From the NCBI GenBank assembly GCA_965223625.1, contig OZ245008.1:1039170-1071169 (forward strand): 32,000 bases of DNA. Reading direction: 5' to 3'. Below, piece after piece: positions 354 through 10,437 of the stretch. The number at the start of each line of letters is the position of its first letter. Position 1 is the stretch's first letter. The position numbers and the translations under genes are program-made. Source of the stretch: Nitrospira sp. (GTDB lineage Bacteria > Nitrospirota > Nitrospiria > Nitrospirales > Nitrospiraceae). The notes under the pieces were generated by a model, which was not told where the DNA came from, did not search any database, and saw nothing but the letters and a program-made list of their open reading frames with translations.

Positions 354-368
354 TGGCATGATGATTGC
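354..368 (+). promoter_or_regulatory. Candidate sigma-54 (RpoN) -24/-12 promoter upstream of the OFOR operon
   Basis: TGGCATGATGATTGC at 354-368 fits TGGCAC-N5-TTGC with exact GG-N10-GC spacing. It lies on the + strand, about 100 nt upstream of the ATG at 471. Confidence 0.4.
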
Positions 369-470: not shown

Positions 471-1073
471 ATGTTGACGATTCGCATTCATGGTCGAGGT
501 GGGCAAGGGGTGGTCACGGCGGCAGAGCTGCTGTCCACAGCCGCCTTCACGGCTGGCAAGCAGGCGCAGGCTTTCCCCAGTTTCGGTTCGGAACGGATGG
601 GGGCGCCGGTAATGGCCTTTTGCCGCATCGATACACAGACAATCCGAACCCGCGAAGCCGTGACGCACCCCGATGTGCTGATCGTCCAGGATCCGACCCT
701 GCTCCATCAGGTGGAGCTGTTTGCCGGATTGTCAGGGGAGGGTTATGTCATCATCAATTCGACCTTCTCCTTAGACGAATTAGGGATCGGAGAGTTCTTA
801 AAATCGATACCGAGTGCTCATATCTGTGTCCTGCCGGCATCGGATATCGGTGTCAAGCACATGAGGCGTCCTATCGCGAATACCCCATTACTGGGTGCAT
901 TTGCCGCGCTCACCGGAGTGATTGATTTGGCTTCGGTCCAGTCGGCAATGCGTCAGAAGTTTCCTGGATCTCTGGGCGAGGCCAACGCGGCCGCCGCGAA
1001 GGACGGCTACGACTATGTCTTCACCTATCCGGCCGGTGAAAGGAGTGCCCAGCACCATGCGCGCGCAACGTGA
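471..1073 (+). CDS. 2-oxoacid:ferredoxin oxidoreductase, gamma subunit (pyruvate/2-oxoacid type)
   Basis: The internal ATG at 471 of ORF 348-1073 gives MLTIRIHGRGGQGVVTAAELLS..., the canonical G-R-G-G-Q-G N-terminus of OFOR gamma subunits. The protein is ~200 aa with no Cys-cluster (delta) domain. The 41 codons upstream in the track look non-coding (Arg/Cys-rich). Confidence 0.85.
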   Translation: MLTIRIHGRGGQGVVTAAELLSTAAFTAGKQAQAFPSFGSERMGAPVMAFCRIDTQTIRTREAVTHPDVLIVQDPTLLHQVELFAGLSGEGYVIINSTFSLDELGIGEFLKSIPSAHICVLPASDIGVKHMRRPIANTPLLGAFAALTGVIDLASVQSAMRQKFPGSLGEANAAAAKDGYDYVFTYPAGERSAQHHARAT

Positions 1074-2310
1074 AGGATCCCAAGCCGTTGCCGAGGCCGT
1101 GATCTTGTGCCGTCCGGACGTCATCGCGGCCTATCCCATCTCACCGCAGACCCATATCGTCGAGCGACTGTCGCGCATGGTCAAGCGAGGAGACGCCGGC
1201 CGTTGTCAGTACCTGAATGTGGAATCTGAATTCGGAGCGTTGAGCGTCCTGATAGGGGCCTCGGCAGCCGGAGCCCGGACTTATACCGCCACGACGAGCC
1301 AAGGGCTCCTCTTTATGGCCGAGGCCGTGTACAACGCGGCGGGGCTTGGACTGCCGATCGTCATGACGATCGCGAACCGCGCGGTCGGCGCGCCGATCAA
1401 TATCTGGAACGACCATTCCGACAGCATGGCCTTGCGCGATGCAGGATGGATTCAGCTGTACGCGGAAACAGGTCAGGAGGCGGCGGATCTCCACATTCAT
1501 GCGTTCCGATTGGCGGAGGAGCTGAGCTGCCCGGTGATGGTGTGCATGGACGGGTATATCCTGACCCATGCCTATGAACCGATCGATCTCCCTGACCAGT
1601 CTGCGGTCGATGCGTTTTTGCCTCCGTTCTCGCCGGTCCAGGTGCTGGATCCGAGTGATCCGATCTCCATCGGCGCAATGGTTGGACCTGAAGCCTTCAC
1701 CGAGGTGAAGTACCTGGCCCATCGGCAACACCTCCGGGCACTGACGCTGGTGCCGGACATCGCCGACGATTTCGAACGGCAATTTCATCGAGAATCCGGA
1801 GGTCTCTACAGGGCCTATCGCATGGCCGATGCCGACACGGTCCTGATCGCACTCGGATCCGTGATCGGGACGATCAAAGACACAGTGGACCAGTTGCGCG
1901 ATGAAGGGATCGCGGTAGGCTGCCTGAAGATCGGGTGCTACCGGCCGTTTCCGTCGATGCAGCTGCGCGCCGCGCTGGAAGGTAGATCGCGCGTGATCGT
2001 CATCGAAAAAGATCTGGCGGTGGGAATCGGAGGCATCGTGTCGGCTGATGTCCGGATGGCGTTGAACGGGTTGCCGATCCCGGTGCACACCATCATTGCG
2101 GGATTGGGAGGACGTTCGATCTCCGCTGAGTCGCTGAAACACATGGTTCGGGATGCCCTGGCCGAGCGTCTGAGCGAACCCTACTTCCTGGACCTGAACA
2201 CGAGGGTGGTCGACGAAGAACTTGCCAGAAGACACGAACAGCGACGAGCGGGGCCGCTCGCCGAGCAGCTGATTCGTTCAGTAAAAGCCATTGGGACGAA
2301 GGTCGTGTGA
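1057..2310 (+). CDS. 2-oxoacid:ferredoxin oxidoreductase, alpha subunit
   Basis: ATG at 1057 is preceded by GAAAGGAG (1038-1045). MRAQREGSQAVAEAVILCRPDVIAAYPISPQTHIVE matches the OFOR alpha N-terminal signature (aaYPItPqt.i.E). The protein is ~417 aa and overlaps the gamma stop by 17 nt. Confidence 0.85.
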   Translation: MRAQREGSQAVAEAVILCRPDVIAAYPISPQTHIVERLSRMVKRGDAGRCQYLNVESEFGALSVLIGASAAGARTYTATTSQGLLFMAEAVYNAAGLGLPIVMTIANRAVGAPINIWNDHSDSMALRDAGWIQLYAETGQEAADLHIHAFRLAEELSCPVMVCMDGYILTHAYEPIDLPDQSAVDAFLPPFSPVQVLDPSDPISIGAMVGPEAFTEVKYLAHRQHLRALTLVPDIADDFERQFHRESGGLYRAYRMADADTVLIALGSVIGTIKDTVDQLRDEGIAVGCLKIGCYRPFPSMQLRAALEGRSRVIVIEKDLAVGIGGIVSADVRMALNGLPIPVHTIIAGLGGRSISAESLKHMVRDALAERLSEPYFLDLNTRVVDEELARRHEQRRAGPLAEQLIRSVKAIGTKVV

Positions 2311-2321
2311 CGGAGCATCCA

Positions 2322-3323
2322 ATGACGACTCAGCGCATCAAGTTTTATCAGACCGGAACCTCTACGGCGGGCAATCGTCTACTCGACGATGAGGCCCGCA
2401 CCGTGCAATCGCGACTGGATCGCACCAATTCCCTGAACTCCGGTCATCGCGCTTGCCAGGGATGCGGCGAAGCCCTGGGGGCTCGCTATGCCATAGACGC
2501 GGCGATGCGTGCTGCACACGAGCGACTGATCGCGATCAACGCGACCGGCTGTCTTGAAGTCTTTTCCAGTCCTTACCCAGAAAGTGCCTGGCAGATCCCC
2601 TGGATGCACTCGCTGTTCGGCAATGCCCCGGCGGTGGCGAGCGGTGTCGCGGCAGCGTTACGGGCCAAGGGGCACGATGACGTGAAGGTCGTCGCCCAGG
2701 GAGGCGACGGGGCGACGGTCGACATCGGGTTCGGGTGTCTGTCCGGGATGTTCGAACGAAACGACGATGTCCTCTACATCTGTTACGACAACGAAGCTTA
2801 CATGAACACCGGCATTCAACGGTCCGGGGCGACGCTCCCCTTCGCGCGGACGAACACGACGCAGGCGGTGGGTGAGGCCCCTGGCAATCTCCTGGGTACC
2901 GGGAAAAATGTCCCTCGCATCGCCATGGCCCACGGCATTCCCTATGTCGCGACGGCGTCGGTGGCGGATCTCCATGATCTGGAGGCAAAGGTCGCTACAG
3001 CCATGGGAATGAACGGCGCGCGGTATCTCCATATCCATGTGCCCTGTCCGCTCGGGTGGGGATCGGATCCGGCGCACACCATGAAGGTCGCCAGAATGGC
3101 GGTGGAATCCGGCCTGTTCCCATTGTTCGAAGCGCGCGCGGGAAGCGTGGTCGAGAGGACGAAGATCCGGCGGAAGATTCCGGTGGAGCGGTACCTTGAA
3201 CTCCAAACCCGATTCAAACATCTGTTCGAACCGTGCAGAAATGATGAGGCGATTACCGCCATACAAGCCATCGCCGACGAGCATATCGCCATGTACGGAT
3301 TGCTGGAGTCCGGAGTTCTATGA
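2322..3323 (+). CDS. 2-oxoacid:ferredoxin oxidoreductase, beta (TPP-binding) subunit
   Basis: Carries the CQGCGE and ATGC cysteine motifs and the GGDGATVDIGFG ... YDNEAYMNTG thiamine-PP/Mg motif typical of OFOR beta. The start is either GTG 2307 (GTGA overlap with the alpha stop) or ATG 2322 (GGAG 6 nt upstream). ATG 2322 is listed. Confidence 0.85.
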   Translation: MTTQRIKFYQTGTSTAGNRLLDDEARTVQSRLDRTNSLNSGHRACQGCGEALGARYAIDAAMRAAHERLIAINATGCLEVFSSPYPESAWQIPWMHSLFGNAPAVASGVAAALRAKGHDDVKVVAQGGDGATVDIGFGCLSGMFERNDDVLYICYDNEAYMNTGIQRSGATLPFARTNTTQAVGEAPGNLLGTGKNVPRIAMAHGIPYVATASVADLHDLEAKVATAMGMNGARYLHIHVPCPLGWGSDPAHTMKVARMAVESGLFPLFEARAGSVVERTKIRRKIPVERYLELQTRFKHLFEPCRNDEAITAIQAIADEHIAMYGLLESGVL

Positions 3324-4945
3324 ATCACAAACCTTTTGCGATCACGCTCGATCCGAACAGCAGCCTGGCCAACCATACGGGTAACTGGCGCACGATGAGA
3401 CCGGTCTATGTCGATCGGCTGCCGCCCTGTAACCACGCCTGTCCTGCCGGGGAGAACATCCAGGCCTGGCTCTATCTCGCGGAAGAGAAGAACTATGAAG
3501 CTGCTTGGCGACGGATCATGGAAGACAATCCGATGCCGGCCATTCATGGGCGGGTCTGCTATCACCCCTGCGAGACTGCCTGCAATCGTGGTCAGCTGGA
3601 TGAAGCCGTCAGCATCCGCGCCGTGGAGCGGTTTCTTGGCGACCTGGCGATCAAGGAACGGTGGCAAGTCCCCTGCGCCCCTTCAACGGGGAAGAAGGTC
3701 TTGATCGTGGGGGCGGGTCCCAGCGGGCTGTCTGCCGCCTATCACCTGACGAGGATGGGGCACCGGGTCACAATTTACGAAGCATCGGATAAGGTCGGCG
3801 GGATGATGCGCTACGGCATTCCCGCCTACCGGCTCCCTCGTGATGTCGTCGATGCGGAAGTCGGACGGATGGAAGCGATGGGCGTCACGATCCGACTCAA
3901 TACGAAAGTGGAGGATCTTGATGCGGCAATTAAGGAAGGTGGATTTCATGCCACGTTCCTTGCGGTCGGGGCCCATCTCGCCAGGCGCATCGACATCCCT
4001 GGTTGTGATGCCAAACGATTGCTCGATGCCGCGACGTTCCTGCGCAGCATGGAAAGTGCTGCGCCGGTCAAGATCGGGAGGCGGCTGGCGGTGTATGGCG
4101 GAGGCAACACCGCGATCGACGTGGCCCGTACCGCCGAGCGTCTGGGCGTGGAGCCGGTGATCATATACCGGAGGGATGAGGCCCATGCCCCTTCATTCAA
4201 AGAGGAAGTCGCCGAAGCGCGCGAAGAAGGTGTACGGTTCCAGTGGCTGCGCACTATTGCGAAGGGCGCCGACAGGACGTTGACGCTCGAAGTCATGGAG
4301 TTGGACGAGCATGGCAAGCCGAAACCTACCGGCCGATTCGAGACCATTGAGGCCGATACGGTGGTGCTGTCATTGGGCCAAAAGGCTGACACAGGGTTCT
4401 TGCGGAATGTGACGGGAGTTTGTGTGCGGGACGACGGGACAGTCGGGGTCGACGAACAGATGATGACCGGCCACCCGGGCCTGTTTGCCGGCGGAGACAT
4501 GGTTCCCGGCGAGCAATCCGTGAGCATGGCGACCGGTCACGGGAAACTGGCTGCACGGCACATCGACGCGTACTTGCGTGGGATTCAATACGTAAGGCCT
4601 CAAGGCCACCCACTCGCGACGTTCGATCGACTGAACCCCTGGTACTACACCGACGCGGAACAGTCCAAGCAGCCGGTGCTGGCCCTTGCGAGGCGGCGCG
4701 CGAGCTTCGAGGAAATGGTCGGAGCGTTGGATCAGGACACTGCCTTGCTGGAGGCGCGCCGTTGCTTGTCCTGCGGTAATTGTTTCGAATGCGATAACTG
4801 CTATGCCGTCTGTCCGGATAATGCGGTGATCAAACTGGGAGCCGGCAATCGGTTCGAGATCAAGTACGACTACTGCAAGGGATGCGGGCTTTGCGCGGAG
4901 GAATGTCCCTGCGGAGCGATCGATATGGTCAAGGAAGTGAAATAG
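3320..4945 (+). CDS. GltD/NfnB-like NAD(P)H-dependent FAD/Fe-S oxidoreductase fused to a C-terminal PorD-like 2x[4Fe-4S] ferredoxin domain
   Basis: The N-terminus has CNHACP and GRVCYHPCETAC, the glutamate synthase small-subunit type Fe-S motifs. VGAGPSGL is an FAD fold and YGGGNTAID is an NAD(P)H fold. The C-terminus has CLSCGNCFECDNCYAVCP and YDYCKGCGLCAEECPCGAI, a delta-subunit-like ending. Its ATG overlaps the beta stop (ATGA at 3320-3323). Confidence 0.8.
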   Translation: MNHKPFAITLDPNSSLANHTGNWRTMRPVYVDRLPPCNHACPAGENIQAWLYLAEEKNYEAAWRRIMEDNPMPAIHGRVCYHPCETACNRGQLDEAVSIRAVERFLGDLAIKERWQVPCAPSTGKKVLIVGAGPSGLSAAYHLTRMGHRVTIYEASDKVGGMMRYGIPAYRLPRDVVDAEVGRMEAMGVTIRLNTKVEDLDAAIKEGGFHATFLAVGAHLARRIDIPGCDAKRLLDAATFLRSMESAAPVKIGRRLAVYGGGNTAIDVARTAERLGVEPVIIYRRDEAHAPSFKEEVAEAREEGVRFQWLRTIAKGADRTLTLEVMELDEHGKPKPTGRFETIEADTVVLSLGQKADTGFLRNVTGVCVRDDGTVGVDEQMMTGHPGLFAGGDMVPGEQSVSMATGHGKLAARHIDAYLRGIQYVRPQGHPLATFDRLNPWYYTDAEQSKQPVLALARRRASFEEMVGALDQDTALLEARRCLSCGNCFECDNCYAVCPDNAVIKLGAGNRFEIKYDYCKGCGLCAEECPCGAIDMVKEVK

Positions 4946-5016: not shown

Positions 5017-5562
5017 ATGAGCACCAGAAAAGGCAAACCCTACACGACGTCGTACAAGGAAAAGCAGCACCCCAAACAGGACCCCTATGCGATGTTCAAG
5101 GCTCCGAAGGGACCGGCGATGTGCCGAAAATGCAAAGCCATCTATACGAACAAGCGGTGGTACATCGATGCCGGTGAAGCCCGCAAACTGGCAGCAGCCT
5201 CCAGCACCCAGAAACTTCTCTGTCCCGCCTGTCAGAAGATCAAGGACGACTATCCGGAAGGAATCGTGACATTGAAATGGTCGGACCTTCGTGAGCACGA
5301 AGCGGAGATCAGGGGATTGATCGCCAATGTGGAAGCGCGGGCCGTCTCCGTGAATCCCCTTGACCGAGTGATGAAGATCGCCAGACGCAAGAAGGATTTG
5401 GAAGTCCAGACAACCAATGACCGGTTGGCGCAACGGCTCGGACGCGCACTGATGCGGGCCTACAAAGGGAAGGCCGAATACAAGTGGGCGCATCGTGACA
5501 TGATGGTTCGGGTGACGTGGGAGGGACCGGAGGCACGTGCGACGCGAAAGGGCAGGAGATAG
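5017..5562 (+). CDS. Conserved hypothetical basic protein with a putative zinc ribbon (two CxxC pairs)
   Basis: A 181-aa ORF with AGAGGAG upstream. It has C36-x2-C39 and C69-x2-C72 and Lys/Arg-rich termini. I vaguely recall similar proteins annotated as 'BCAM0308 family' but cannot verify this. Confidence 0.6.
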   Translation: MSTRKGKPYTTSYKEKQHPKQDPYAMFKAPKGPAMCRKCKAIYTNKRWYIDAGEARKLAAASSTQKLLCPACQKIKDDYPEGIVTLKWSDLREHEAEIRGLIANVEARAVSVNPLDRVMKIARRKKDLEVQTTNDRLAQRLGRALMRAYKGKAEYKWAHRDMMVRVTWEGPEARATRKGRR

Positions 5563-5642: not shown

Positions 5643-6668
5643 ATGTCCATCATCCGGCAGGATCCAACGACGAGAGAGTGGGTGATTATTGCGGCGGAAC
5701 GGAAAAGACGTCCGCACGAATATCATCGGCATACCCGTGCTCGCTCGCAATCGACTGAGACCGGGCCTTGTCCGTTTTGTCCGGGTCATGAGGCGGCGAC
5801 ACCGGAGGAGGTTTTTCGAGTCTCGGATGCGAGTGGGGTAGGCTGGACCGTGAGGGTGACATCGAACAAATATCCAGCACTTGGCGCAACGGGTTTGCTG
5901 GAACGACGAGAAGCAGGGCCCTTGTTCCGTGAAATGGATGGTGTGGGGACGCATGAGGTGATCATTGAGACACCTTCCCACGAGAGAAGCTTGCCTCTGA
6001 TGACGGACCATGAGGTGGCTGATGTCTTGACCGCGTATCAGGCGCGATATCGGTCGCTGCGAGAAGACTCGCGCCTCAAATACCTCATCATTTTCAAGAA
6101 CCATGGCGAAGCCGCCGGGACGTCGCTGGTGCACCCGCATTCGCAATTGGTCGCGACGCCGGTCCCACCCATGTTGCTCCGCAGGAAATACGAAGTCGCC
6201 GTCGCGCATTACGACGACACGGGCCGGTGCTTATATTGCGATATCGCGGAGGAAGAACGACTGGCAAAGAGCCGGGTTGTCTTGGAAACCGACCGGTACC
6301 TGGTCTTCCATCCCTTCGCCTCGCGAGTGCCGTTCGAGACGTGGATTACACCCAAGCGGCATCAGCCGTCGTTCGCACAGGTGGGCAATGAGGATCTCCA
6401 TGAATTGGCGCCGGTGCTGCGGCGAACGCTGCGGGCCTTATACGACCGTCTGGGTGATCCGGATTTCAACTACATCATCCACAGCGCGCCGGCAGAAGAT
6501 GAAAACAAGGACTACTACCTCTGGCACATCCAAATTCTTCCTCGGCTGACGACCATCGCCGGATTCGAGTTGGGATCCGGCATCTACGTTTCGACCATGC
6601 TACCTGAGCAGTCGGCAGCCGCGATCAGAGAATATGGGCAGGTCGCGGGGGCCGGTCCATCTGGGTGA
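5643..6668 (+). CDS. galT: Galactose-1-phosphate uridylyltransferase-family (GalT/HIT class I) nucleotidyltransferase
   Basis: Has the CPFCPGHE zinc motif and the active-site VHPHSQLVA (H-x-H-x-Q) motif. The 341-aa length is right for GalT-like enzymes. Confidence 0.8.
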   Translation: MSIIRQDPTTREWVIIAAERKRRPHEYHRHTRARSQSTETGPCPFCPGHEAATPEEVFRVSDASGVGWTVRVTSNKYPALGATGLLERREAGPLFREMDGVGTHEVIIETPSHERSLPLMTDHEVADVLTAYQARYRSLREDSRLKYLIIFKNHGEAAGTSLVHPHSQLVATPVPPMLLRRKYEVAVAHYDDTGRCLYCDIAEEERLAKSRVVLETDRYLVFHPFASRVPFETWITPKRHQPSFAQVGNEDLHELAPVLRRTLRALYDRLGDPDFNYIIHSAPAEDENKDYYLWHIQILPRLTTIAGFELGSGIYVSTMLPEQSAAAIREYGQVAGAGPSG

Positions 6669-6682
6669 GGAAAGGAACGACG

Positions 6683-7936
6683 ATGCTTCCTGCAATCTCC
6701 GTGAGTCGCCGATGTGGGGCGATACTGGCGAATGTTCAGCATTACCGGATGTTGATCAGCGACGAACTGAGTGAAGAACTGTCACAGTTGGCGCGCGAGT
6801 TGAGGGATGTGCGGATTTGCCATCTGAACTCGACCGCCTTCGGCGGCGGCGTCGCCGAACTCCTCTCTCGGTATCTGCCGATGCTGCAGGCATTGGGAAT
6901 TTCAGCCGATTGGCGGTTGATCCACGGCCAACCGGAATTCTTTACCGTCACGAAGGCCTTTCACAATGCGCTGCAGGGTGGACATTACGCATTGGGCGAG
7001 ACGGAACAGAAGCTGTATCTCGAGGTAAACGAGCGAAGCGCAGAAGCCTTGGACACCGACTACGACGTCTACATCGTGCACGATCCTCAACCGGCGGCGT
7101 TGCGGCATTTTACCGGTCCCCGTCACGCGAAATGGATCTGGCGTTGTCACATCGATAGTTCTTCACCGGACAAGCAGGTGAGCGGATTCTTGCTGCCGTA
7201 CCTTGAGGAGTATGATGCCGTGGTCTTCACGATGTCCGAGTTCCTCTTGCCCGGTCTCAGAGCTCAACGCGCGGCCTTCATTGCGCCGGCCATCGATCCA
7301 TTGGCGACCAAAAACATGGAACTCTCCCAGGATCTGTGCCGCCGCGCCATTGCGGATTCCGGTGTGGATCCGAGCAAGCCTTTACTTGTGCAAGTGTCGC
7401 GGTTCGATCCTTGGAAAGATCCCTTGGGTGTCATCGAAGCCTACCGTTTGGTCAAGAAAGAAATCCCTGACGTGCAGCTCGCGTTGATCGGCGCGATGGC
7501 GGGAGACGATCCAGAGGGGTGGGAATTACTCGATCGCGTGGAGGAAGAAGCTTCCGGAGATTCGAACATGTTCGTGTTTACGAACCTGGCCGGTGTCGGC
7601 AGTATGGAAGTCAACGTGTTTCAGCGGGGTTGTGACGTCGTCATTCAAAAATCGCTTCGCGAAGGATTCGGGCTTGTGGTGTCGGAAGCGTTCTGGAAGG
7701 AGAAGGCCGTCGTGGCGGGACAGGCTGGAGGAATTCCGATGCAGTATCCTGAAGGATTCGAGGCCAACCTAGTTCACAGCGTCGAAGCCTGCGCAGAACG
7801 TATCGTCCATTTATTGCGTCATCCTGGTGAGCGAGGTTCGTTTGGACGGGCCGGCCGCGAACACGTGCGGAAGAATTTCCTCTTGCCGCGATTGGTTCGC
7901 GATGAGCTTCGATTGATCAAGCAACTTGTCGGTTGA
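6683..7936 (+). CDS. treT: TreT-type trehalose glycosyltransferring synthase (GT4 glycosyltransferase)
   Basis: Long colinear blocks match archaeal TreT as I recall it: NSTAFGGGVAELL, FF.VTKAFHNALQG, HDPQPAAL, WRCHID.SSP, VSRFDPWKD, DDPEGW, REGFGLVVSEA.WK. ATG 6683 has GAGGAAAGGA upstream; the alternative GTG 6665 overlaps the galT stop. Confidence 0.7.
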   Translation: MLPAISVSRRCGAILANVQHYRMLISDELSEELSQLARELRDVRICHLNSTAFGGGVAELLSRYLPMLQALGISADWRLIHGQPEFFTVTKAFHNALQGGHYALGETEQKLYLEVNERSAEALDTDYDVYIVHDPQPAALRHFTGPRHAKWIWRCHIDSSSPDKQVSGFLLPYLEEYDAVVFTMSEFLLPGLRAQRAAFIAPAIDPLATKNMELSQDLCRRAIADSGVDPSKPLLVQVSRFDPWKDPLGVIEAYRLVKKEIPDVQLALIGAMAGDDPEGWELLDRVEEEASGDSNMFVFTNLAGVGSMEVNVFQRGCDVVIQKSLREGFGLVVSEAFWKEKAVVAGQAGGIPMQYPEGFEANLVHSVEACAERIVHLLRHPGERGSFGRAGREHVRKNFLLPRLVRDELRLIKQLVG

Positions 7937-8019
7937 GGTGCAATGACGGTCATACAAGCCGTTGCATCAGGTGTGGGCGACATGGATGATTGAGGAGACG
8001 ATTCAGGGAAGGAGGATCT

Positions 8020-10437
8020 ATGAGCACCGTCGTACAGGGTGCTGATCTCGTGAAGTGGTTCGAGGAACTGAGTATTGAAGACGTGCCGTCTGTCGGAGGG
8101 AAGAACGCGTCGTTGGGCGAAATGTATCGTGAGCTGGCCGCTAAAGGCGTGAAGGTACCGAACGGGTTCGCCGTTACCGCGGACGCGTACCGCGCCTTCT
8201 TGAAAGAGGCGAAACTCGACGGTACGATCAGGACCATTCTCAAAGACCTGGACACCCACAATCTGGAAAATCTGCGTCAGCGCGGTAGACAGGTACGACA
8301 GGCGATTCTGGGCGCCGTCTTGCCGCTCGAGTTGTCCGAAGCGATCACTGATGCGTACGATCGATTGAGCGGCAGCCATGCGGAACCGGTCGATGTTGCC
8401 GTCCGGAGCAGTGCAACGGCTGAGGATCTTCCCGACGCCAGTTTCGCGGGCCAACAGGAAACATATCTGAATGTGCAGGGCCACCTCGCGTTATTGGAAT
8501 ACTGCAAACGCTGCTTCGCGTCCCTGTTCACCGATCGGGCTATCTCGTACCGGGCTGATAAAGGATTCGATCACTTCAAGATCGCGCTCTCGATCGGCGT
8601 GCAACGGATGGTGCGCTCCGACCTGGCGACGTCCGGCGTGATGTTTTCGATCGATACGGAAACCGGTTTCCGTGACGCCGTGTTGATCAATGCCGCCTAC
8701 GGTCTTGGTGAAAACGTCGTGCAGGGTTCGGTGAATCCGGACGAGTACTATGTCTTCAAGCCGACGTTGAAGCAGGGCTACCGCCCCATTCTGCAGAAAA
8801 TACTCGGCACGAAAGAATTCAAATTGGTGTATGACATCGGCGGCGGCAAGATGGTTAAGAACCTTCCGGTCCCTCCGGGCGAGCGGGCACAGTTTGCCGT
8901 GACGGATGATGACATCCTGACACTTGCCCGATGGGCCTGCACCATTGAAGATCATTACAGCGCGAAGCGGGGAGTTCCAAGCCCGATGGACATGGAATGG
9001 GCCAAGGACGGCCGGACAGGGGAACTGTTCATCGTGCAGGCTCGTCCTGAAACCGTGCAATCGATGAAAAAGGGGCAGGTACTGGAAACCTATCGACTTA
9101 AACAACAAGGGCGGGTCTTGGTCAAGGGGCGTAGTATCGGGGACAAGATCGCGCAGGGACCGGTGCGGGTCATCAAGTCCGTTGAGCAGATTCACGAATT
9201 CCAAGGAGGTGAAGTCTTGGTCACGGATAAGACGGATCCCGACTGGGAACCGGTTATGAAGAAAGCACAAGCGATCGTCACCAATCGGGGAGGACGAACC
9301 TGCCATGCCGCCATCGTCAGCCGTGAATTAGGACTACCCGCCATCGTCGGGACGGAACATGCGACCGATTTGCTCCACGATGGGCAACTCGTCACCGTGT
9401 CCTGTGCGGAAGGCGACACAGGCTTTGTGTACGATGGGCAGATTCCGTTTCATGTCGAGAAGCTTGATGTGAAAGAGATCCGCAGGCCCAAGACCAAGGT
9501 CATGATGAATGTCGGAAACCCACAAGAGGCTTTTGGGCTCTCTGCCATACCGAATGACGGGGTCGGCTTGGCGAGAGAGGAGTTCATCATCAGTACGTAT
9601 ATAAGGGTCCATCCCATTGCGCTGATCGAATTTGACCGATTGGAAGATCAGGCACTGAAGGCTGAGATCAACCGAATCACGGCGGGATATTCGGACAAGG
9701 CCGAGTTTTTCGTCGACAAGCTGGCGCAGGGCGTCGCGATGATCGGGGCGGCCTTTTATCCGAAGGACGTGATCGTCCGGCTCAGCGACTTTAAGAGTAA
9801 TGAATATGCCGATCTGATCGGAGGCCGGCGCTACGAGCCACAGGAAGAGAACCCGATGTTGGGGTTCCGAGGGGCCTCGCGCTATTACGATCCGCGCTAT
9901 CGTGAAGGTTTCGCATTGGAATGTCGGGCGATGAAACAGGTGCGGGATGTGATGGGTCTGACGAACGTGAAACTCATGGTCCCGTTCTGCCGTACGGTTG
10001 AAGAAGGGAGACTCGTCCTGGCGGAAATGGAGCGGCATGGGTTGAAGCGGGGAGAGAAGGGACTTGAAGTCTACGTCATGTGCGAAATCCCGAGCAACGT
10101 GATTTTGGCGGAAGACTTTGCCGAAATCTTCGACGGCTTTTCGATCGGCTCCAATGACCTCACGCAACTGGTGCTCGGCGTGGATCGCGATTCCGAAATC
10201 GTGGCCCATCTGTTCGACGAGCGAAACGAGGCGGTTAAGAAGATGGTGGCGATCGTGATCAAAGCCGCCAAGGCGAAGGGACGAAAGATCGGTATTTGCG
10301 GGCAGGCGCCGAGCGACTATCCGGAGTTCGCCAACTTTCTCGTCGAACAAGGGATTGAGAGCATGTCATTGAACCCGGATGCGGTCATCAGAACGACAAT
10401 GGCGGTGTTGGAACAGGAGAAACAGCGTTCACGATGA
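8020..10437 (+). CDS. ppsA: Phosphoenolpyruvate synthase (pyruvate, water dikinase)
   Basis: ATG 8020 is preceded by GGAAGGAGG. VPSVGGKNASLGEM is the ATP-grasp N-terminus, GGRTCHAAIVSRELGLPAIVG is the phospho-His swivel motif, and SIGSNDLTQL is the PEP-utilising C-terminal motif. The protein is ~805 aa. Confidence 0.92.
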   Translation: MSTVVQGADLVKWFEELSIEDVPSVGGKNASLGEMYRELAAKGVKVPNGFAVTADAYRAFLKEAKLDGTIRTILKDLDTHNLENLRQRGRQVRQAILGAVLPLELSEAITDAYDRLSGSHAEPVDVAVRSSATAEDLPDASFAGQQETYLNVQGHLALLEYCKRCFASLFTDRAISYRADKGFDHFKIALSIGVQRMVRSDLATSGVMFSIDTETGFRDAVLINAAYGLGENVVQGSVNPDEYYVFKPTLKQGYRPILQKILGTKEFKLVYDIGGGKMVKNLPVPPGERAQFAVTDDDILTLARWACTIEDHYSAKRGVPSPMDMEWAKDGRTGELFIVQARPETVQSMKKGQVLETYRLKQQGRVLVKGRSIGDKIAQGPVRVIKSVEQIHEFQGGEVLVTDKTDPDWEPVMKKAQAIVTNRGGRTCHAAIVSRELGLPAIVGTEHATDLLHDGQLVTVSCAEGDTGFVYDGQIPFHVEKLDVKEIRRPKTKVMMNVGNPQEAFGLSAIPNDGVGLAREEFIISTYIRVHPIALIEFDRLEDQALKAEINRITAGYSDKAEFFVDKLAQGVAMIGAAFYPKDVIVRLSDFKSNEYADLIGGRRYEPQEENPMLGFRGASRYYDPRYREGFALECRAMKQVRDVMGLTNVKLMVPFCRTVEEGRLVLAEMERHGLKRGEKGLEVYVMCEIPSNVILAEDFAEIFDGFSIGSNDLTQLVLGVDRDSEIVAHLFDERNEAVKKMVAIVIKAAKAKGRKIGICGQAPSDYPEFANFLVEQGIESMSLNPDAVIRTTMAVLEQEKQRSR

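Follow-up and report, generated by a model that had tools for sequence, protein, structure and literature searches.

We analysed a 32,000-nt window of the Nitrospira sp. genome (GenBank assembly GCA_965223625.1, contig OZ245008.1, positions 1,039,170 to 1,071,169 of the forward strand) in which four translationally coupled + strand genes, spanning window positions 471-4945 in the order gamma-alpha-beta-delta*, encode three subunits of a 2-oxoacid:ferredoxin oxidoreductase (OFOR) and an unusual fourth protein of 541 residues, delta*. Judged from its sequence, delta* is a PorD, the small delta subunit of pyruvate:ferredoxin oxidoreductase (POR or PFOR), with an Fe-S/FAD/NADPH module of ~450 residues, like those of NfnB, StnC and DsrL, inserted between the N-terminal arm and the 2x[4Fe-4S] core, and this split-PorD architecture defines a large family. 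We consider it very probable that delta* is an integral subunit of the OFOR. That the four genes make up one pyruvate-type 2-oxoacid:NADP+ oxidoreductase is a reading in which we have moderate confidence, and NADP(H), reached over a linear electron wire, would fairly probably be its physiological partner. The delta* gene and its parts lie as follows (window coordinates):

3320..4945, + strand: delta* subunit, 541 aa, matched by NF009410 over its full length; ATGA overlap with the beta stop
3332..3415, + strand: PorD N-terminal arm with a TGxWR...RPVY motif, delta* residues 5-32, colinear with 9bt4_G residues 3-30
3416..3664, + strand: Fer4_20-type Fe-S domain, residues 33-115 (Pfam Fer4_20, 72.7 bits), aligned to StnC, NfnABC and GltD chains
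3677..4579, + strand: FAD (GAGPSG) and NADP(H) (GGGNTAID, Y283-R284-R285) Rossmann domains, residues 120-420 (Pfam Pyr_redox_2, 122.6 bits)
4580..4774, + strand: linker ending in an EAxRC-x2-C motif (C482, C485), residues 421-485, like 9n5u_A 564-597
4775..4942, + strand: PorD 2x[4Fe-4S] ferredoxin core, residues 486-541, TIGR02179 positions 25-77

An earlier note on this stretch had described a PorD-like ferredoxin module fused to a flavoprotein. The C-terminus of delta* is indeed PorD, but the arrangement is an insertion and not a C-terminal fusion, since residues 5-32 are PorD as well. When the first 40 residues were compared with the whole Protein Data Bank (PDB), the only match was 9bt4_G (E 1.9e-5), and the arm matches PorD models at their own N-terminal positions (NF040684 6-30, TIGR02179 3-24). 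The TGxW[RK] signature stands just ahead of C-x3-CP in at least 85 of the 150 best cluster representatives at 50% identity. At the other end of the protein, residues 486-539 are the stretch matched by the core of TIGR02179 (PorD_KorD, 78 positions), which scores 69.4 bits with the whole of delta* and 61.2 bits with its C-terminal piece (cut-off 60.05), and the core aligns with residues 32-84 of the PorD chain 9bt4_G (E 4.4e-17). All eight core ligands (C488/491/494/498 and C519/522/525/529) are invariant. With 541 residues, delta* lies outside the ~80-105 aa of stand-alone PorD/KorD proteins. A search with domain hidden Markov models, as the earlier note had anticipated, found Fer4_20, Pyr_redox_2 and Fer4_21 in this order, and NF009410 (PRK12771, ‘NAD(P)-binding protein’) covers delta* with 724.3 bits (cut-off 516; model positions 18-565 of 566). 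A search of the PDB returned no solved chain with the whole architecture.

All motifs that the earlier note had quoted for the fourth protein were found in their places: CNHACP at residues 37-42, GRVCYHPCETAC at 77-88, GAGPSG at 131-136, GGGNTAID at 260-267 and YDYCKGCGLCAEECPCGAI at 516-534. Its description of the N-terminal Fe-S motifs as GltD-type needs one correction: the first CxxC pair is missing from this Fer4_20-type domain, which has C37, C41, C80, C84, C88 and E103. Of these, C41, C80, C84 and E103 are invariant and align with the proximal-cluster ligands C51, C90, C96 and E117 of NfnB (NfnB numbering from PMC7596348), while C37 and C88 match half of the four distal-cluster ligands of NfnB. 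Across 40 diverse homologues (35-56% identity), 15 Cys and Glu103 are invariant, giving 16 ligands and thus enough for four [4Fe-4S] clusters. Ten of the invariant Cys are in the C-terminal part, two (C482 and C485) beyond what the dicluster core needs; by ligand bookkeeping, these two could complete the distal cluster of the flavoprotein module. The EAxRC-x2-C motif that holds them also follows the flavoprotein module in the NfnABC chain 9n5u_A (564-597, E 7e-5). We had considered a circular permutation, with residues 455-485 as a relocated GltD/NfnB leader; the match to the NfnB N-terminus was non-significant (E 1.1), the IorA fusions described below have a Cys at the N-terminal junction in addition to a C-terminal EAxRC-x2-C, and the idea was dropped.

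GAGPSG, GGGNTAID and Y283-R284-R285 are invariant in delta* homologues. The YRR residues of NfnB hold the 2'-phosphate of NADPH, and in DsrL the presence of YRR tracks NADP(H) specificity (PMC7596348). In an AlphaFold2 monomer model of delta*, residues 120-420 have a predicted local distance difference test score (pLDDT) of 85-98. Foldseek placed the model next to NfnI-L, NfnB, GltD and StnC, with template modelling (TM) scores of 0.64-0.73, and its neighbours also include the NfnABC large subunit and DPD.

The association of delta* with OFOR genes is conserved well beyond this genome. In a scan that used one genome per species, we found a relative in at least 583 species, and for synteny we took the best 80 loci (54-64% identical; Pseudomonadota, Actinomycetota and Acidobacteriota) plus Rhodocyclaceae loci. 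The beta gene lies immediately 5' of delta* in 80/80 of the best loci, and wherever there is enough upstream DNA (68 loci) the complete gamma-alpha-beta-delta* order was found. The same arrangement was seen in 28/28 further Rhodocyclaceae loci with upstream DNA, and altogether beta was directly upstream of delta* in 108 of the 108 related loci with upstream DNA. The delta* gene was detected in 3 of 121 sampled Nitrospiraceae genomes, and in the two besides this one the arrangement is conserved. Clustering of the flanking open reading frames (ORFs) at the 80 loci brought up nothing conserved beyond the four genes: the most frequent neighbour occurs in 6/80, no NfnA-like or ferredoxin gene was among conserved neighbours, and no conserved neighbour hinted at the substrate. 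The four genes travel as a self-contained cassette, with no dedicated ferredoxin or NfnA-like gene required. Its hosts include Nitrospira, Gallionella, Azospirillum, Rubrivivax, Streptomyces and many Solirubrobacterales. In a quick tree the delta* clade is monophyletic, and Actinomycetota rows are nested among Proteobacteria rows, which suggests that the cassette has spread horizontally.

More distant members of the family tie the protein to the OFOR in other ways. Some have the order gamma-delta*-alpha-beta, which is that of canonical porGDAB with delta* in the porD slot, and natural gamma-delta* fusion proteins of ~750 aa occur. At one locus (L134:6001-13010), a two-gene OFOR consists of a gamma-delta* fusion of 755 aa and, after it, an alpha-beta fusion of 707 aa; the genes that come next are LarA-like (Lar_N) and Ldh_2, hinting at a lactate-pyruvate link. 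A metagenome-assembled genome (MAG) of Ca. Kryptoniota (L135:5400-12610) has gamma-delta*-alpha-beta followed by a second alpha, a beta-gamma fusion and a rubrerythrin-like gene. Outside the Por-type enzymes, IorA-like proteins of ~1100 aa from Dehalococcoidales and Myxococcales MAGs (P0183 family, alignment A3) carry the same module directly before their own C-terminal ferredoxin domain. Further relatives of the module (P0221, P0267) are fused to a dihydroorotate-dehydrogenase-like domain.

Expression data come from Nitrospira marina Nb-295, in which the corresponding genes, named alt_por, are induced at low O2. Bayer et al. 2021 (PMC8115632) list all four alt_por proteins as near-absent under atmospheric O2 but present when O2 was low, with spectral counts for alt_porD of 0/1/2 and 12/8/10, respectively. 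The authors flagged the delta* gene in a table (PMC8115632). In the text, alt_por is read as a putative ferredoxin-dependent POR, sensitive to O2 and possibly more efficient at fixing CO2, that is restricted to lineage IVa (PMC8115632, PMC10579370). We assign delta* to the OFOR because both PorD halves are kept, synteny holds in every one of the 108 loci, distant relatives either take the place of porD or form fusions with gamma, and the protein is co-induced with its neighbours in N. marina.

The earlier note had also stated that the operon lacks a free delta gene, and the complete 4.14-Mb genome bears this out. It has three OFOR alpha genes, of which the other two belong to five-gene Hydrogenobacter-type clusters with a small delta in each. 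These clusters, at genome positions 336623-340504 and 3077679-3081824 (-), consist of a 212/254-aa extra subunit, alpha, beta, gamma and small delta, and are presumably the POR and the 2-oxoglutarate:ferredoxin oxidoreductase (OGOR) of the rTCA (reductive tricarboxylic acid) cycle. The sole match to TIGR02179 above its cut-off in the genome is the C-terminus of delta*. An orphan delta gene serving this operon was therefore rejected, as there is no other above-cut-off PorD_KorD match and the small deltas sit in their own clusters.

The remaining genes of the operon, and a candidate promoter ahead of it, are placed as follows:

354..368, + strand: candidate sigma-54 promoter, TGGCAT-N5-TTGC (-24/-12 type), uncertain; gamma starts ~100 nt downstream of it
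471..1073, + strand: gamma subunit, porG/porC-like, 200 aa; start set by family match and sequence
1057..2310, + strand: alpha subunit, porA-like, 417 aa (Pfam POR_N 230 bits, PFOR_II 92 bits)
2322..3323, + strand: beta subunit, porB-like, with thiamine pyrophosphate (TPP) site and proximal [4Fe-4S] cluster (Pfam TPP_enzyme_C)

These boundaries agree with the four start/stop-coupled genes, the 17-nt gamma/alpha overlap and the ATGA overlap of beta and the fourth gene given in the earlier note, as does its account of a gamma subunit of ~200 aa without Cys clusters: gamma has 200 residues and only 2 Cys, with no Fe-S motif. It matches Pfam POR with 135 bits and TIGR02175 (PorC_KorC) with 190 bits, above the cut-off of 81. 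A longer gamma ORF from the ATG at 348 (348-470, + strand) would add 41 residues that have no family match and overlap the candidate promoter; this extension is probably untranslated. The alpha start (ATG 1057) is preceded by an AAGGAG site. Beta has two possible starts, ATG 2322 with a GGAG site or GTG 2307 with a GTGA overlap of the alpha stop, and of these ATG 2322 is the more likely. The beta product matches the PFOR beta chain of Methanosarcina acetivorans (9bt4_C) with E 4e-86.

TGGCAY-N5-TTGC has a single exact match in the window, and 9 of 100 shuffles had at least one match; the element was not conserved upstream of the cassette in one other Nitrospiraceae genome examined. No + strand terminator was predicted 3' of the operon. 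Further downstream, the + strand encodes an NMD3-like zinc-ribbon protein (5017-5562), a GalT-like transferase (5643-6668), the trehalose synthase TreT (6665-7936) and a phosphoenolpyruvate (PEP) synthase (7990-10437); besides the latter, the genome has two more PPDK_N-type genes.

For the four-protein complex that we infer, gamma, alpha and beta would make up a TPP-dependent catalytic core of the usual kind, which includes the proximal [4Fe-4S] cluster. Delta*, with the module spliced into the first cluster-binding motif of PorD, would dock at the delta position through its N-terminal arm and 2x[4Fe-4S] core. Electrons would pass from TPP to the beta cluster, on to the two delta clusters and the two clusters of the flavoprotein module, and from there through FAD to NADP+. 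The distal cluster, probably completed by C482/C485, which directly precede the delta core, would hold the two Fe-S domains to each other. The favoured direction would be pyruvate + CoA + NADP+ to acetyl-CoA + CO2 + NADPH, in an enzyme probably used at low O2. With textbook potentials of about -500 mV for acetyl-CoA + CO2/pyruvate and -320 mV for NADP+/NADPH, oxidising pyruvate with NADP+ goes downhill by ~35 kJ/mol and the opposite reaction uphill by as much, which favours the oxidative direction. The direct coupling of an OFOR to NAD(P)(H) suggested in the earlier note appears, by comparison with known systems, to be the most economical reading, because delta* is by its sequence an integral delta-type subunit with a complete FAD/NADP(H) module; there is no sign of the bifurcation or confurcation that the note had put beside it. 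The link to autotrophic pyruvate synthesis is thermodynamically doubtful, since forming pyruvate from NADPH is uphill by the same ~35 kJ/mol.

Canonical PorGDAB/PorABDG enzymes (Pyrococcus, Thermotoga, M. acetivorans; PDB 9bt4) have homologous alpha, beta and gamma subunits, and both the arm and the core of their delta subunit are found here. Their delta is ~85-105 aa long in contrast to 541 aa, the gene order here is gamma-alpha-beta-delta*, and the predicted acceptor is NADP+, not free ferredoxin. OFORs wired to a pyridine nucleotide by a flavoprotein are known from the pyruvate:NADP+ oxidoreductase (PNO) of Euglena and Cryptosporidium and from PadEFGHI of Azoarcus (phenylglyoxylate:NAD+). 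PNO has a C-terminal domain with FMN and FAD, like cytochrome P450 reductase, and Pad has a separate delta and a separate flavoprotein; neither splits the delta subunit. Among the profile matches were NCBIfam NF0457xx models, which we take to be associated with PNO/Pad-type enzymes.

The Azoarcus evansii 2-oxoglutarate oxidoreductase (KGOR) studied by Ebenau-Jehle, Boll and Fuchs in 2003 reportedly uses NADP+ as its catalytic acceptor by way of an extra FAD/Fe-S subunit. PMC10134865 puts this flavoprotein subunit in the GltD/NfnB family. As an OFOR that reduces NADP+ through a subunit of this family, KGOR is the closest biochemical precedent. Its core is a two-subunit KorAB acting on 2-oxoglutarate, whereas the core here has three Por-type subunits. 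In Rhodocyclaceae, a homologue next to korA, with 32% identity to delta*, carries this module together with a ferredoxin domain at its C-terminus, but it aligns only from delta* residue 30 on, with no PorD arm aligned, and belongs to a different clade. The locus (L129:4833-9536, - strand) encodes a 620-aa GltD + ferredoxin protein, a 349-aa Pyr_redox_2 protein and a 656-aa KorA (a gamma-alpha fusion), and is probably an A. evansii-type KGOR locus.

DsrL (Löffler et al. 2020, PMC7596348), which serves DsrAB as its NAD(P)H:acceptor oxidoreductase and can be seen as a functional analogue, shares with delta* the layout of N-terminal Fe-S domain, FAD, NAD(P), linker and C-terminal 2x[4Fe-4S], at 31-35% identity. 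It is found in dsr clusters, its BLAST alignment begins at delta* residues 22-28 so that the arm is mostly unaligned, and it forms a separate clade; Löffler et al. explicitly did not count as DsrL those similar genes that are linked to genes for pyruvate/ketoisovalerate oxidoreductases (PMC7596348). NF009410 scores true DsrL (~650 aa, 700-750 bits) above its cut-off as well as delta*, and the family name therefore covers at least two functional partners. True DsrL loci with the order dsrM-dsrK-dsrL-dsrO-dsrP were seen in Rhodocyclaceae and Magnetovibrio (L125:5575-12209, L128:5202-12038). The nearest solved chains are StnC of the transhydrogenase StnABC and the large subunit of NfnABC (PDB 8oh5, 9bov, 9n5u; 33-34% identity, TM ~0.7), of which NfnABC has EAxRC-x2-C after the module in common with delta*. 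In StnC, a GltD-like module is inserted in a NuoG-like Fe-S wire protein, and electrons from NADPH run linearly over an FAD that does not bifurcate (PMC10482914). StnC differs from delta* in that its host is NuoG-like and not PorD, its proximal cluster has Lys in place of Glu, and its partner is a HydBC-like bifurcating module, not an OFOR.

Several findings weigh against the pyruvate:NADP+ oxidoreductase that we propose. Alpha, beta and gamma all score below the cut-offs of the PorA, PorB and PorC equivalog models: these Por models are the best matches, but the alpha subunit reaches 444 bits with PorA_Arch (its best NCBIfam model; cut-off 550), beta 327 bits with the PorB model NF008819 (cut-off 405) and the third 202 bits (cut-off 270), and pyruvate as the substrate is therefore a best guess only. 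The N-terminal Fe-S domain is without two canonical Cys ligands, for which the proposed replacement by C482/C485 is bookkeeping and not structure, and the proximal cluster retains the Glu ligand found in bifurcating NfnB. In the AlphaFold2 monomer, the arm and ferredoxin parts of delta* have a pLDDT of 50-70 and the linker region is low too; for the arm and ferredoxin parts this is expected, since such parts normally pack on partner subunits and bind clusters. A single-chain model of an IorA-GltD-ferredoxin fusion (P0183 family), built in lieu of a multimer to probe docking, reached a mean pLDDT of 83.9 and a predicted TM score of 0.57, and its Foldseek matches were NfnB-like only. The genome also encodes an E1-type 2-oxoacid dehydrogenase, so that a second pyruvate-oxidising route is not obviously needed. 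Finally, the PEP synthase gene 3 kb downstream, with its counterparts near the cassette in 6/80 other loci, would suit an enzyme that makes pyruvate for anabolism better than one with a catabolic task, and an anabolic role may yet apply.

We weighed the NADP+-linked enzyme against three other readings of the cassette. It might be an ordinary ferredoxin-dependent four-subunit POR in which the module is an accessory for NADPH-driven reductive reactivation, for protecting clusters from O2 or for redox sensing. The enzyme was published as a low-O2-induced ‘four-subunit POR’ (PMC8115632, PMC10579370), the cassette is mostly found in aerobes and microaerophiles, where cluster protection would be useful, and external ferredoxin could still reach the delta clusters. 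All catalytic motifs of the 450-aa module are nevertheless invariant over lineages that are only 35-64% identical, independent fusions have brought this module into the electron path in OFORs of other types, and no ferredoxin gene is conserved with the cassette across the 80 loci; moreover, a subunit of the A. evansii 2-oxoglutarate:NADP+ oxidoreductase falls in the same GltD/NfnB family (PMC10134865). We consider this accessory role unlikely.

A bifurcating enzyme, in which an NfnB-like FAD splits the NADPH pair and sends one electron uphill via delta* to pyruvate synthesis and the other to a higher-potential acceptor, or a confurcating one working in reverse, would suit an rTCA autotroph with a PEP synthase gene downstream of the cassette (and near it in those 6 of 80 other loci); the nearest relatives in sequence and fold include the bifurcating NfnB and NfnI, and the NfnB-typical Glu ligand of the proximal cluster is invariant. 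However, DsrL has the same Glu ligand, which is thus non-diagnostic, the closest solved chain, StnC, has lost bifurcation and is a linear wire (PMC10482914), the 16 ligands allow only one cluster chain to be counted, and most cassette hosts are heterotrophs. Neither in the operon nor, as a conserved neighbour, around the cassette of 80 species was an NfnA-like or other second-branch partner found, NfnA not having been searched for in the remainder of the genome. Such an enzyme is in our view quite unlikely, and it is very unlikely that the NfnB-like flavin of delta* itself is a bifurcation site with the second electron dumped on a higher-potential acceptor. That delta* is an independent NAD(P)H oxidoreductase of DsrL, SudA or Nfn type merely adjoining a delta-less OFOR, a case for which the earlier note had allowed, we regard as extremely improbable. 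NF009410 does score true DsrL in dsrMK-L-OP contexts, and two-subunit OFORs without a delta exist, but DsrL is a separate clade, both the PorD arm and core are kept in delta*, the 108/108 synteny and the distant relatives in the porD slot or fused to gamma all point to an OFOR subunit, and delta* is induced together with alpha, beta and gamma in N. marina.

Whether the architecture had already been characterised was a question left by the earlier note. Our literature search found no biochemical or structural study of the delta* form, and a November 2026 review of PFOR diversity makes no mention of such a subunit, although the related A. evansii KGOR has been characterised and annotators had noticed the gene, which is catalogued as NF009410 at NCBI and as a ‘delta subunit’ at JGI. 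Annotation pipelines call it ‘PorD’, ‘glutamate synthase’ or ‘NAD(P)-binding protein’. As far as we found, the literature describes neither the insertion into a split PorD nor how large and how syntenic the family is, nor what this would mean for the ‘four-subunit POR’ of Nitrospira.

If our reading is correct, at least 583 bacterial species possess a self-contained pyruvate(2-oxoacid):NADP+ oxidoreductase, and surveys of carbon fixation that draw on metabolic reconstructions would be miscounting the cassette as a ferredoxin-dependent pyruvate synthase. The splicing of a flavoprotein into a ferredoxin cluster-binding motif would also be a recurrent event, seen in PorD, gamma-delta fusions, IorA and StnC, by which electron wires are re-plugged through domain insertion. 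For Nitrospira, the low-O2 ‘four-subunit POR’ would then more likely serve to turn stored carbon into acetyl-CoA and NADPH, the latter being expensive for nitrite oxidisers to produce, than to fix CO2 more efficiently.

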